Shown here: piece after piece, positions 1-6,000 of the stretch
Layout: every line of letters begins with the position of its first letter
Position numbering within the stretch: the stretch's first letter is position 1
IMG/VR virus record: IMGVR_UViG_2695420863_000007
Source: a virus
Taxonomy: Duplodnaviria; Heunggongvirae; Uroviricota; Caudoviricetes
DNA length: 18,526 bases
Reading direction: 5' to 3' (one strand)
Position numbers: made by a program

Positions 1-3000
1 CGGCAACATCAGCACGCAGAGTTTCATTTTCAGCTCTCGCATCGGCTAATTCCCTCGAGTATCTGGCATCAAGTGCAGCGACATCACGCTGGCGTATCTG
101 CATATCAGTAATTGTCGCGTTCGCCAGCTCCAGCTCACTGGCTTTTTTATCGCGCTGCTCTTTGTAGATGATGGCGTGATCACGGTAATGATTCAGCCCC
201 AGACTAAGCGCACCACAGGCCACCAGCAGGACAATGATAACCACGCACAGAACACGGTTCATATCACCACCAACGGATTGCCCAGACCAGAACAGCAATG
301 GCCACAATACGAATGGCAAAAGCTGCCGCTCTTGTTAAATCCAGACTGGCTGGCGTCTCCACTTCAATGCCTTTCATAATGGACAACCTCAGAAAGAATC
401 TTTTATACTTCCTCACAGGGAAAGTACCTCCCTACCCATAATTTCTCCCTTGCCTTACTCAAGGTCAGAAAACACAAAACCCCGCTTGCTGCCAACAAAC
501 GGGGTTTTTACTTTTATTCACTTAGGTTTTACCAGTTTTCAGGATTTCGTGTTATCCACCCGCGTTGGCCAACGTCATTTTTCAGGAAAATATTCTGCTA
601 TCTGTCGATGTCCCAGCACGCCAGCGCGCTCTCCTGGTCACGCCGTGAGACCTGACCGTAGCAATTATTTGAACGGATACGGCAGTCTCTGCCACCGTCC
701 TTAATCCACCAGCGAATCGCCTCACAGGCACCTTTTCGATCGCCTGCATTAATTCGTTTATAAAACGTCGACGGGAAGCACTTACCGGGGCCAATGTTGT
801 ACGGACAGAATGACGCGATCCCCGCTTTCTGGGGTTCGGTCAGCGGCACCCGGATGTTTTTCTCCACCCATGCCAGAGCCTTGTCACGTTCGATGGCATT
901 AACCCGGTCGCATTTTTCCTTTGACAGCTTCATGCCAGGAATAACAGGCTTACCATCCACCAGAATGGCACCACGGCAGATGGTCCAGATCCCCGCACCA
1001 TCACGGTATGCCGTGGTGTGGTTACCTTCCTTTTCATCCAGAAACTGGTCGAGGATTTCAGGCGCAGAAGCACCTGCACCAATCAGCGCCAGAACGGCAG
1101 CCGACAGGCCGTATTTTATTTTTTCGTTCATGGGGATTTATCGATTTCTAATCCCTTGATATGTTAGGTATATAATCCAACACTCATGGTCGCTCTCATA
1201 AACATATCCCTTGAGACGCAGCAGATTACAACAAATGAAGCCATATAAATGAACAGTAAAGAAAGTTTGCGCAGAAGATTTTTACAACTAATGACAGAAA
1301 ACGTTAAATCAGAGTTACTTCTTCTGATGGCAGATAATAACGAAGCAACAAGCAGCATTCTTGCAGACCCTTACGGTAAGATCTCACATAAAACGCTGGA
1401 TATTATTACCACAACATTAACACCGCTGATGCTTCAACGGCTGAAACATAATATCAACGCATGGGTTAATGAAGAATTAAGTCCTCCCTGCTTATGGGAT
1501 TCTCGTTACGCATGTCAGCAAAAAATGCGAATTTTCAACTTACTATCACCAAAGCTCAGGTAGCCATAAAATCCTGCCCTTCATGGCATACAGGATTTCA
1601 ATGGAATCACAATGACCAACTCTTGCACAGCTGTATCCCTGACTCCCCGACAACTCAGATTTTCAGTATCTGCTGCTATCTAAAGAGAAAGCGCACAAAT
1701 GCAAGGGTCTTTCATCACGTCCTGTTATTGATTGCCTGTGACCTTTTCTTACCTCATGGAACGTTTTTTCAGTTAGAAATATTCATTTTACAACCAGTTC
1801 GTATTGTTTATTCATCGACTACTCTCCCCGCGCCACCTTACGCTTATCTTCTTTAATCTTGAAATAAAGGTTAGTCAGATACGTCAGCAGGCCAAACAGC
1901 AGACTCCCCAGCACACCGATTGCCACCCACTGGGACGGAGAGACTTTGTCCAGCAGCTGCAGTAACCAGTATCCCGTCCCCACCGCTGACGTGGTGTATG
2001 ACACACCTGTTGTGATTTTTTCCATCTGATGTATGTCTCCGTCACCGCCGACAGAAAATGAAAGTAAAGAAAAACAAAAAAACCGCCAGTGTCACCCACT
2101 GACGGCCAACTCCGGGAGCCGTGATTATGGCATTCAGGCTCTGCTAAAAATGCCAGATAACATTCCGGCCTCCCCTGATTCAGGTTATAAATGACACAAT
2201 ATCTTGACAACACCCGTCACTGTCTGTCAGAAAATATACCGCCAGGCATAAGTATCATGTGAAATCCAACTATCCTTCTGAGCCAGCACCTCTCCACCGA
2301 AAGTCAGTGCTGGCTGTTTTTTTCCTTAATAAAGCATCTGTAACTGAAACAATCCGCATATTGATAATATATTGACAGGCATCATTGCTGTCTGTGAAAA
2401 ATAAGTCTCTACAAACATATAAGGCCTTTTAGCCAGCGTCTTCTTTCAGGTCAGTCGCTGGCTCTTTTTTTATTATGCTGCCGGTGCATTTATCTCCAGC
2501 ACCAGACTTTCTATCTCAACGCCATACGCTGCATTTTTTGTAACATCCGTCAGCGTCAGCGCATTCAGTCCCAGTGTCAGACTGTCTTTTATAACCTGGA
2601 ATGCCGGGCCAGCCACTCCATTCAGTTTCGGAGTAACCGTGGCACTGCCGGCGGTGAACACCAGCTCCAGCGTCTGCCAGTCGTTACCGTAACCGCCGAA
2701 CTCCCCCAGCTTCGTGTTTCCGGCTTTCCTGTGATGCATCAGATTCACTCTGCCGTCAGTGGTCTGAGTGAAGTACGACATCAGGAACGGATTACCGGTA
2801 CCCGTCATCGCCACACCATCAGGAACGGGAGCATCCGTATACAGATAAATCCCCAGCCCGAACTGATTGTTGGTCAGTGCGCCTGACAGGCGGAACTTAC
2901 AGGTCAGTCTGCCGCCCTGTGTCAGCAGGGTAATTGCGTCATCCACCGGATGCGTCAGGGACCAGGTTTTATTGCTCTGCTTGGTGATCTTAAATACACC

Positions 3001-6000
3001 ATCTGACAACTGAATTCCGCCATCCTTAATGCTCCAGCCCTGCGCAGCAGCCTCTCCGGCTGCCGGCAGCAGGGAGATTGTGCGAACGGACGTATCTGCA
3101 GACGGACCCGATGGCGTGTTGCCGCCGGGCGAGGGTTTGATTTCCGGTGCCTTACCACTGATGAAGGCTGAGGTGCGCCCGGCTGCGTTCAGAATAGCGG
3201 TTGCCAGACGATCCGGAATAATGCTCCTGCGCGCCCATGAACTGAAATGTGTCGGGCGGTTTGATGATACCTGGTTTCCATTCGTTCTCGATGCCGCACC
3301 GTAATATCCTGATGCCGGAATATCCGGATCTTCTGCCGGCGCGTTAGTGGCGGTATTGACGCCGTTACCGTCTGTCATGAAGGGCACAAAATAAACGCCC
3401 TCACTCTCCCTGTTTTTATACCCGCCGTACACGGTGTCGTATTGGGTAGCGTATGTATTTTTCCAGTAATACGTCGTGTCACCACAAATCCACGGCACAT
3501 CTGCAGCGCTGCCACCATGGCACTGCGCGTTAAACACGGAGAGGTCAGCACGAAACTGTGTCAGCATGGCTGTAAACAGCGCAGGTTGCTGTGCGTGGGT
3601 GGCGGCGCTCATGTCAAACTCACCCTGCATCCAGCAGACGGCCAGCAGAACGTTTTTGGGATTTTTCTGCAATGCCGCTTTTGTGCGGGAAATCAGATCC
3701 TGATATAACGGCTTGCCCACCCCCCAGCGTGCCGAATCCTGACTGGCCCCCGTGGACTCGCTGAATGTCCCCTCCGCGCCCTGGGTAAATGCCGAACCAC
3801 CACGACAGCATGGTACCAGCAGGATCCCCGCGTTATTCGGGATATACGGGAGCAGTTTTTTGGCAATATGTAAACCCTGGCCGACACAGCCGTACTGCCC
3901 TTTGCTCAGGTCAGCCCTCGGATGATTCAGCGTACTCATATCCTGCACATCATGCAGACAGTGGTCAGCCGGAATAATATCGTTATATCTGCAGGCAGCC
4001 CCGCCCGGCGTCACTGTACTGCGGCGCGCCAGCTGTTTAATGCGCGGATCCGGAGCATCGTATGAATCCGGCAGCGGAAGCCCTTCACCGTAAGCCATGG
4101 CATTGGACTGCCCGGCCAGTACGATGACGTAGTACCAATCCGGCTCAGATGAAGGGCCGACCTGTGGCTCTCCTTCAATAGCCACCGCCTGCATCAGTGT
4201 GTACGGCGTAATGGCAACCGGTCCGCCGTATGGCTGCCAGCCCTCTTTCAGTTTGTGTGTCAGCTTTTCCGCAAGGTCTGACGGCGACGCCGCCCTGACA
4301 ACATCGTAATGTTTAATCGACATCGAATTTCTCCCGTGTACAGGAACAGAGTTAAAAAGCCGGAACCGGAATCAAATCACAGGATGACCATCTGCCAGTG
4401 GCAGGTCATAAAAAAAAGCTGCGCAATGCGCAGCCAGAACTCACAAGGAAAATGATAAAAGGAATAACACTAGTGATGTACGCATGGCGCCTCCCGCTAA
4501 GTTCTGCAATGATCAAACAGAACTCGCTACGTGCCCTTAAAACTCGATCATTTAGCCCCTCCAAGGAGGATTCACCATGCGGTTGGTTTTTTAATAAACA
4601 GTAAACAAAAAAGTCAAGAATTATTCATTCTGTTCTTTCATCATCGGCCACAGCAATACCACAATGCCGCAGACCAGAGCGCCATCAGTCAGTACCAACA
4701 TTATCCTGCTGGTGAAATCCATCATCACCATCACTAAAAGCAGGATCACAACAGCAAGCAGACACAGTTTATAAAACAATGTTCAGAAAACGCATTCAGC
4801 ATGCCTGAGGTTCTATTCCTACGAATAGCCAACTTGCAACTTAAAATATTATTTATGCAGCCAATTAAATTCTGGTCCTTACAATATCAACCTGAAGATT
4901 CTTATCTTGTGCTGATTGATAAATGACAAACCTTTTACTACCTGCATTGAAAGAAGTAGACAAAACCAGACAATTATCATAACGAGCAAGAACATAATAC
5001 CAACCATCATTATAATTAATCATTTCATATTCTTTCTTAAACTGTGGTTTGTAATATCCTGTCAGAAATGAAAAAAGCCAGAAATATGCCACAAAAGCAA
5101 TCATCACAATCTCAAAAAAATGTTTTTTATAAATGGCTTATCATAGAAGCATGATACCGATAAAAATCGCCCATAAGATCTTATCGAAATTGTAACCGCC
5201 AGCGCAATCGCTGCTGACAGTAGCAAAAGAGGTACCTGAATCTTCTGTCTCAATATAGAAAACTCAATAATTGCCGGCACAAACAATAATTCCACAGCAA
5301 AATAAAGGCGAAATACATTTAGCTCTTGCATAGAATGTTTTCTTTTCACTGCGAAAAAGAATACAACACCAATACCCCAACCGATAAGAAATATAGCAAT
5401 GACGATAACTGCAAAAAATAAACTTCTGGCAACATCATCAACACCTGCACCTACAATCCACCATGGGAAGCCGTAGTAAAAAGAAGTACCCCATCCATAG
5501 AAATAAGCACTCCCCCATCCAAGGCATCCCATGTAGGCAATAAAAAGTGAAGAACTCCTGAGCAGCGCACCATCCTTCATAACCACCCCAATACAAGATG
5601 ATAACATTGGCTTACAACTCATAACAAAAGCAATTCAATGCCGTCAAGAGGTTACAGGCTAAAAAAACTCTATTACATTGCAGTCAGCATGTTTACTACA
5701 CAAATACAATTCAGAGCATAAAAACTACTCGGCGGCAGGTTATTGAGCTCATCAATGACATGTAAAAAACGCCCATTATTGGTGTCAAGTTTCCCCAAAG
5801 TTATTCAAAAAGTCAATATTATGCCGTTAATATGTTGCCATCCGTGGCAATCATGGCGCTAACGTGTGATCGCATTCAAAATGTTGTCTGCGATTGACTC
5901 TTCCTTGTGGCATTGCACAACCAGAGCGTCATACAGCGGCTTAACAGTGCGTGACCAGGTGGGTTGAGTAAGGTTTGGGATTAGCATCGTTACAGCGCGA

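Follow-up and report, generated by a model that had tools for sequence, protein, structure and literature searches.

The DNA analysed here, a stretch of 18,526 bp referred to below as the window, comprises all of contig CYFL01000041.1 (draft assembly GCA_001285685.1). It derives from a lambdoid prophage and holds part of it, with the rightward genes (replication and late) on the minus strand. Judging from sequence, the open reading frame (ORF) at 2473..4323 on that strand very likely represents nanS-p, a functional-looking member of the prophage sialate O-acetylesterase family, within the late operon of a mosaic lambdoid prophage that carries no Shiga toxin (stx) genes. By homology four blocks make up this mosaic, namely lambda Q/pR', 434-type cargo, 434/Stx1-type nanS-p together with S, and 933W-type R/Rz; the joining of lambda Q/pR' to the arrangement of phage 434 through S, and then to a 933W-like R/Rz, makes it a typical lambdoid mosaic. 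The arrangement is ordinary, common in E. coli and already described, and its nearest relative is a textbook phage, 434. The result has little weight as a discovery; it provides a correct annotation and guards against a wrong inference of a Stx phage.

The nanS-p gene and its product

The nanS-p gene is a single uninterrupted ATG-to-stop ORF of 616 codons, with GGGAG placed 7 nt 5' of its ATG. Pfam searches resulted in three matches, all above gathering scores: DUF1737 (PF08410) at residues 4-49 (E 2e-15; nt 4177..4314, minus strand), SASA (PF03629) at residues 66-262 (E 1e-12), and the lectin-like DUF6645 (PF20350) at residues 467-577 (E 4e-18). Comparison with PDB entries matched residues 60-379 to chromosomal NanS/YjhS (3PT5, E 1e-122), which places the NanS/SASA esterase domain at nt 3187..4146, and residues 421-613 to the crystallised C-terminal domain of a NanS-p (6YP6, E 5e-30), which places the lectin-like C-terminal domain at nt 2485..3063, both on the minus strand. 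This is the three-domain NanS-p architecture (N-terminal DUF1737, esterase, C-terminal lectin-like domain) defined previously (PMC10462455).

A BLASTP alignment with the NanS-p of phage 933W extended over the full length of the protein (residues 1-613 against 1-640; 347 of 646 positions identical, 54%; E 0), with identity differing by domain: 60% in DUF1737, 71% in the esterase and 37% in the C-terminal domain. All of the active-site blocks were found, GQSNA at residues 71-75, RGGSAF at 174-179, MQGEFD at 232-237 and SHFS at 358-361, using the block definitions given for 3PT5 in the motif table of PMC10792757; that table and reviews were our sources on NanS and NanS-p enzymology. The hydropathy scan of NanS-p showed no hydrophobic segment, suggesting that the protein has no signal peptide, and an NCBIfam search with the protein returned no match. 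As an alignment result, the family assignment is far beyond chance.

An earlier note on this DNA, made from the sequence alone, had called the gene product a NanS-p-type esterase and proposed alignment to 933W-type NanS-p as a check; the three domains, the full-length alignment at 54% identity and the catalytic blocks all agree with that call, and the esterase domain is that of NanS (3PT5) and not of a different SGNH hydrolase family. The gene can therefore be given a proper annotation, its current ones being "unknown function" in PHROGs (phrog_143) and "SASA family carbohydrate esterase" in PGAP.

Layout of the late region and its regulatory sites

The late genes run on the minus strand in the order Q, pR', cargo, nanS-p, S, R, Rz, with NinG, NinH and a NinI phosphatase preceding Q in phage order. 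Q (5859..6482, minus strand; 207 amino acids) is a late antiterminator of lambda type, identical to lambda Q at 205 of 207 positions and matching Pfam Antiterm (PF03589, E 4e-57), and neither the Q of 933W nor the Q82-like Q of 434 had a match anywhere in the window. The pR' late promoter (5788..5816, minus strand) is predicted as TTGACT-17 nt-GAAACT by its homology to lambda pR' (TTGACT-17-TAAATT). Starting at the end of Q, the alignment to lambda is near base-for-base as far as the pR' -10 element and approximately the first 10 transcribed bases, after which the two sequences diverge, and it is from this alignment that we infer promoter function.

Between pR' and the cargo there is a weak remnant of the terminator of phage 434 (5719..5740, minus strand) that folds at -7.8 kcal/mol (z -1.4), compared with -13.3 kcal/mol (z -3.4) for the equivalent site in 434; a consensus terminator scan of 5622-5860 found no terminator, and the RNA fold of the leader from pR' to the cargo gave no significant structure (z 0.08). 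With this site degraded, the first strong terminator after pR' is the intrinsic terminator beyond the cargo, at 4417..4435 on the minus strand, which has an 8-bp GC-rich stem followed by U8 (consensus scan; -15.5 kcal/mol, z -3.2), is located 94 nt upstream of the nanS-p start, and is kept in phages 434 and fS25a. Transcription started at pR' may cross the cargo cassette even when Q is absent. Two further terminator-like hairpins were found by the consensus scan between nanS-p and S (2081..2169, minus strand), and the annotation of phage 434 has a terminator on the same strand just upstream of S.

Coordinates and homology together confirm the Q, pR', cargo, nanS-p, S, R, Rz layout that the earlier note had described. 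They do not sustain its label of a "Stx-phage-style" late region, given that Q and pR' are those of lambda, that the 933W Q has no match, and that the segment from the cargo to S is that of phage 434 at about 97-100%. A P21-type pinholin S followed by a 933W-type R/Rz cassette, as in the late region of Stx phages, is present; this S-R-Rz cassette is nevertheless not specific to Stx phages, since 434 has the same type of S and the S-R block recurs across E. coli genomes.

Absence of stx and prevalence of nanS-p without it

Searches of the window by tblastn with Stx1A/B and Stx2A/B resulted in chance matches only, with a best E of 0.74 in the whole window, consistent with the statement in the earlier note that no stx genes are present. 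The cargo ORFs had no match to ribosome-inactivating protein or Stx-B families, and ARAGORN found no tRNA gene in the window, including any 933W-like ileZ-argN-argO.

We examined how often nanS-p occurs with stx in a sample of 160 IMG/VR loci, which is biased to two query alleles and not dereplicated, and 117 of which have at least 3 kb of upstream sequence. Within 4.5 kb upstream of nanS-p, stx was found in 19 of these 117 loci and was lacking in 98, so that about five in six of the sampled nanS-p loci carry non-stx cargo (TciA/TciB, DNA methyltransferase or the membrane cassette described below). The other cargo among the 117 comprised TciA plus TciB (27 loci), a DNA methyltransferase (23), and a 247-residue membrane protein plus TciB (12), with none of the tested genes in 25; the exact configuration of the window (lambda-type Q, membrane protein, TciB, nanS-p) was seen in 6 sampled loci. 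In megablast searches the nanS-p allele of the window was matched at 80% cover or more in 1392 of 5426 complete E. coli genomes, with up to 15 matching places per genome. Previous studies have likewise placed nanS-p in non-Stx prophages (PMC10462455, PMC8065619), and all NanS-p alleles analysed from EDL933 ("seven vs. 10") and the five from O104:H4 are prophage-borne and gave active esterases (PMC8065619).

In lambdoid phages the slot between pR' and nanS-p serves as a general site of moron insertion, with stx as one occupant. The value for typing the element that the earlier note had seen in nanS-p is not upheld, as most of the sampled nanS-p loci lack stx upstream and the gene is known from non-Stx prophages; neither nanS-p nor the Q-cargo-nanS-p-S-R-Rz layout is evidence of a present or past Stx phage.

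Predicted expression, release and activity of NanS-p

The timing of nanS-p expression, the activity of the enzyme and its ecological role are predicted here from the layout of the operon and from work on relatives. As long as the prophage is dormant, transcription begun at pR' or at any promoter of the cassette would end at or before the 4417..4435 terminator, leaving nanS-p silent. Upon induction, the lambda-type Q would modify RNA polymerase at pR' and allow read-through into nanS-p, S, R and Rz. Late expression of nanS-p would fit the strong terminator just upstream, and in previous studies z1466 (nanS-p) was among the genes most strongly induced together with stx2 and late genes (PMC8065619), with phage-inducing conditions also raising nanS-p expression (PMC10462455). 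The protein would then accumulate in the cytoplasm and be released upon pinholin/SAR (signal-arrest-release)-endolysin/spanin lysis, exit at lysis being suggested by the lack of an export signal; the part of S, R and Rz that lies on the contig is undamaged. Once the protein is outside, its SGNH-type domain, with Ser73 in GQSNA as nucleophile and His359 in SHFS, would remove 9-O-acetyl groups from 5-N-acetyl-9-O-acetylneuraminic acid (Neu5,9Ac2) and mucin sialoglycans, as assayed NanS-p alleles do in cleaving Neu5,9Ac2 and mucin O-acetyl sialic acids (PMC8065619), and the freed N-acetylneuraminic acid could feed surviving sibling lysogens.

Several observations weigh against this reading. The -10 element of pR' is GAAACT compared with TAAATT in lambda; the 18.5-kb draft contig has no head, tail or integrase genes; and the prophage may be defective, with a frameshifted cargo gene and an S-R spacer that holds gene remnants. 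The expected esterase activity of the window allele is drawn by analogy from other alleles, and the picture of a released soluble enzyme may be incomplete given that the phi24B homologue is a virion protein.

The signs of decay would also suit a prophage that can no longer be induced, in which nanS-p is intact and idle, a passenger kept by recent descent or recombination among lambdoid prophages. Adjacent to nanS-p a cargo gene is frameshifted, ydfR retains 10 codons and the spacer ORF has lost its 5' end, the contig breaks inside prophage DNA at both ends, and as many as 15 matching places in one E. coli genome suggest redundancy. We nevertheless regard this as quite unlikely: nothing interrupts the 616 codons of nanS-p and no catalytic block is missing, the ORFs of Q, S, R, O, P, cI, cro, cII and N are each intact and match a family, and phage 434, which is viable, has an allele 99.5% identical to this one.

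A different substrate has also been considered, as the review PMC8065619 raises the possibility that such an esterase acts on bacterial glycans; here the enzyme would O-deacetylate O-antigen or capsule, easing the phage's access to its receptor. Divergence from 933W is greatest in the C-terminal carbohydrate-binding domain (37% identity, as against 71% for the esterase), as would fit glycans that vary. We consider this very improbable for the window protein, since its esterase domain resembles chromosomal NanS (E 1e-122), a 9-O-acetyl-Neu5Ac enzyme, and all assayed NanS-p alleles act on Neu5,9Ac2 and on mucin O-acetyl sialic acids (PMC8065619).

DUF1737 variants and the question of capsid decoration

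A recent preprint describes NanS-p of phage phi24B (gp84) as an abundant virion protein that is later cleaved, with DUF1737 hexamers in the central hexon of each face of the T=9 capsid, anchored by Tyr42 (10.64898/2026.04.10.717836). By this precedent, NanS-p of the window would be mainly a virion component, its DUF1737 anchoring the esterase on the capsid for movement through or sticking to mucus or for receptor access, and would not primarily be a nutrient factor of the lysogen. In the window protein DUF1737 is clearly recognisable, residues 1-33 are near-identical to those of 933W, and a tyrosine (Y41) is located in the loop region corresponding to the anchor. DUF1737 as a whole is identical to that of 933W at only 32 of 53 positions, with a 3-residue gap in the anchor loop relative to phi24B. 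A search of the PDB copy found no solved DUF1737 structure.

We distinguished at least four N-terminal variants of NanS-p (A-D). In eight reference sequences the DUF1737 variant tracked capsid type perfectly: variant A occurred with lambda-type heads, variant B with heads having a major capsid protein (MCP) of 645 residues (including BP-4795), and variant C with the podovirus head. This rule failed for A and B in the 160 IMG/VR loci and was rejected. Variant A, that of the window, was found with lambda-type heads (2 loci), a second lambda-like type (7) and the 645-residue-MCP type (3), never with a podovirus head, and the closely related variant B with the same three types (4, 21 and 13 loci, respectively). 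Variant C (933W/phi24B) occurred with podovirus heads in 7 of 8 loci, the genuine exception (L167) having a 645-residue-MCP head, and this association could reflect lineage structure. BLASTP among the MCPs of 434 (lambda-type), the 645-residue type and the 933W podovirus found no detectable similarity; the occurrence of A and B with three siphovirus head modules, together with this dissimilarity of the MCPs, gives no sign of head-specific co-adaptation for the variant of the window. By general capsid geometry, a T=7 capsid of lambda type lacks a hexon on its three-fold axis, which also speaks against a virion role here. The flat hexon in the middle of each T=9 face is the sole binding place in phi24B (10.64898/2026.04.10.717836).

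Some association with the head does appear when the comparison is restricted to loci with a 933W-type esterase body, among which the 933W-type N-terminus was found with podovirus heads in 6 of 7 and the B-type N-terminus with siphovirus heads in 13 of 13 (Fisher p 1.8e-4, uncorrected for relatedness). Such loci also show that recombination occurs within the gene: the BP-4795 NanS-p (14001..15938 of its locus, L015) has a body that is 98% identical to 933W, an N-terminus that is 54% identical to it, and a DUF1737 of the YYZ type (88-90%). By alignment NanS-p is therefore itself a mosaic, in which DUF1737 plus the linker recombines independently of the esterase/C-terminal body.

On this evidence we hold a mainly virion-borne NanS-p to be unlikely for the window, and keep a late-expressed enzyme set free at lysis as the preferred reading. 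It is likewise doubtful, if anything slightly more so, that the A/B-type DUF1737 is a general capsid-binding module that recognises siphovirus heads of several unrelated kinds, that of 434 (lambda-type) among them. If that were true, many stx-negative lambdoid E. coli phages would release virions bearing a mucin-sialate esterase, and nanS-p would be a structural gene of mucus interaction rather than one of lysogenic conversion.

The cargo cassette

The slot between pR' and nanS-p is occupied by an AT-rich membrane-protein cassette (4385..5607, minus strand), with a GC content of 36-39% compared with 54-56% for nanS-p. Its first gene (4865..5607, minus strand) corresponds to the 247-residue multi-pass membrane protein gp68 of phage 434 (phrog_1521) and was matched by tblastn in two frames, at 97% and 100%. 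In the window this gene is split into ORFs of 167 (5104..5607) and 80 codons (4865..5107) by the loss of 1 bp that reduces an A7 tract to A6 on the coding strand (plus-strand T-run at 5123..5128). The intact protein has four to five hydrophobic segments, and the frameshift drops the last membrane segment and the soluble tail. An allele scan found A6 in the window and in CP148323, and A7 in 434, fS25a and O157 strain 7409. In the complete genome CP148323 the A6 allele is annotated as frameshifted by PGAP, and the recurrence of the allele there suggests that the change is probably real; A6 could mark a true pseudogene or a tract prone to slippage, or it could be an error of the draft assembly. 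The 247-residue protein had no match in the local Pfam copy or in PADLOC, and its PHROG family is without assigned function. The N-terminal part (5104..5607) bears a precomputed Pfam label, PF27470 "TfpB", and a literature search for TfpB gave unrelated uses of the name.

The second gene (4621..4779, minus strand) is intact and encodes a DUF3927/TciB-like membrane protein of 52 residues (PF13064, E 3e-14; phrog_1470) with two hydrophobic segments, 100% identical to TciB of 434. A small putative ORF (4406..4564, minus strand) resembles 434 gp70, a putative membrane protein (87% identity), and has one hydrophobic segment; it had no family match in Pfam or PHROG searches, and its coding status is uncertain. 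A reading of the cargo as a defence system was rejected, PADLOC giving no match for the membrane protein, TciB, the small ORF, the spacer ORF or NanS-p.

In O157:H7 strain 7409 (4203..5996 of locus L012) the membrane-protein plus TciB cassette is located between a Q82-like Q and S without nanS-p, indicating that cassette and esterase are independent modules, and the cassette query was found in 682 of the 5426 complete E. coli genomes. The cassette looks like a moron in its low GC, in ending at a terminator of its own (4417..4435) and in occurring where nanS-p is missing. It would be co-transcribed after induction, and may also be expressed in the lysogen. The proposal of the earlier note that a membrane-protein cassette fills the cargo slot is consistent with the hydropathy results, with the addition that its largest gene is frameshifted in the window; its reading of this cargo as late-expressed agrees with the position of the cassette, whereas the hallmarks of a moron and the cassette's own terminator leave timing restricted to the late phase without support.

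Lysis genes and the S-R spacer

S (1819..2025, minus strand) encodes a class II (P21-type) pinholin of 68 residues, 98.5% identical to S of 434 and 90% to S of 933W (PF04971, E 2e-32). R (598..1131, minus strand) encodes a 933W-type lysozyme of 177 residues (94% to 933W R; PF00959, E 8e-24) with a hydrophobic, SAR-like N-terminal segment at residues 9-27. Rz (1..262, minus strand), with Rz1 embedded from position 42, is cut by the contig end; it is 84% identical to residues 1-87 of 933W Rz, and residues 1-14 of Rz1 are 100% identical to those of 933W.

S and R are separated by a 690-bp spacer (1132..1818), the ydfR slot in relatives, of which the first 10 YdfR codons alone are left (1786..1815). 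The spacer contains a 5'-truncated ORF on the plus strand (1249..1563), antisense to the late operon, that matches positions 57-158 of 159 in phrog_1853 and is annotated as a 90-residue hypothetical protein in O55:H7 RM12579. A 751-bp query covering S-R was 100% identical in many E. coli genomes and matched over at least 80% of its length in 624.

Other features of the window

Two overlapping ORFs on the plus strand, 15271..15759 (162 codons) and 15756..16376 (206 codons), lie directly downstream of, and co-oriented with, a cI-like repressor gene (14627..15274). This pair is in the rexAB/hex position, gave one weak sub-threshold Pfam match and no PADLOC match, and is a candidate for a lysogen-expressed exclusion pair. 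Right after the N antiterminator gene, 17156..17839 (plus strand) encodes a 227-residue Nmad5 protein (nucleotide-modification-associated domain 5, PF18757, E 1.5e-68). An antirepressor module is located inside the nin region (8727..10227, minus strand), with ORF6N/P22_AR_C and ANT/KilAC antirepressor genes nearby; Rfam matches there comprise a C4 antisense RNA (10029..10113), isrK (10140..10214) and c4-a1b1 targets (10175..10227). Rfam also labels 9441..9524 as "sRNA-Xcc1".

Comparison with known systems

The relatives of the window gene range from a chromosomal enzyme to a nearly identical phage allele. Chromosomal NanS (YjhS, 3PT5) shares the esterase domain and the GQSNA, RGGSAF, MQGEFD and SHFS blocks. 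It matches the esterase domain only (residues 60-379), not DUF1737 or the lectin-like region, in agreement with the finding that the N- and C-terminal domains are specific to prophage-borne genes (PMC10462455), and its name and the literature mark it as chromosomal and not part of a phage late operon. The NanS-p proteins of 933W (Z1466/L0105, NP_049502) and phi24B (vb_24B_21/gp84) have the same three domains and identical catalytic blocks, and nanS-p of 933W is likewise located between Q-proximal cargo and S. The 933W protein is 29 residues longer than that of the window, and its gene is flanked by tRNA genes and stx2AB on the upstream side and by an additional ORF (p43) on the downstream side, all of them absent from the window; in addition, 933W and phi24B are podoviruses, and gp84 of phi24B decorates the capsid.

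The Stx1a phages are closer. In YYZ-2008, gp42 (annotated yjhS/9-O-acetyl-N-acetylneuraminic acid deacetylase) is a NanS-p that is 96% identical to that of the window, with the same length and domains and the same location upstream of S. Differences between the window and Stx1a proteins cluster N-terminally, with 44 of 53 positions identical in DUF1737 and 4 of 9 in the first linker, compared with 312 of 318 in the esterase. The Stx1a phages differ from the window in having stx1AB and a Q of 144 residues upstream.

The closest relative is phage 434, in which gp71 (UMO75335.1, "SASA family carbohydrate esterase") is 99.5% identical over 616 residues, including all 53 of 53 positions in DUF1737. 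There are differences on both sides of this gene: 434 has a Q82-like Q and a good terminator after pR', where the window has lambda Q/pR' and the weak remnant; its membrane-protein gene is intact (A7), where the window has A6; and a SAR endolysin of 165 residues abuts S, where the window has the 690-bp spacer and the 933W-type R of 177 residues. In between, the two are alike, with the 247-residue membrane protein, TciB, the small ORF, the terminator, the esterase and a class II holin following one another in a stretch that carries no stx in either.

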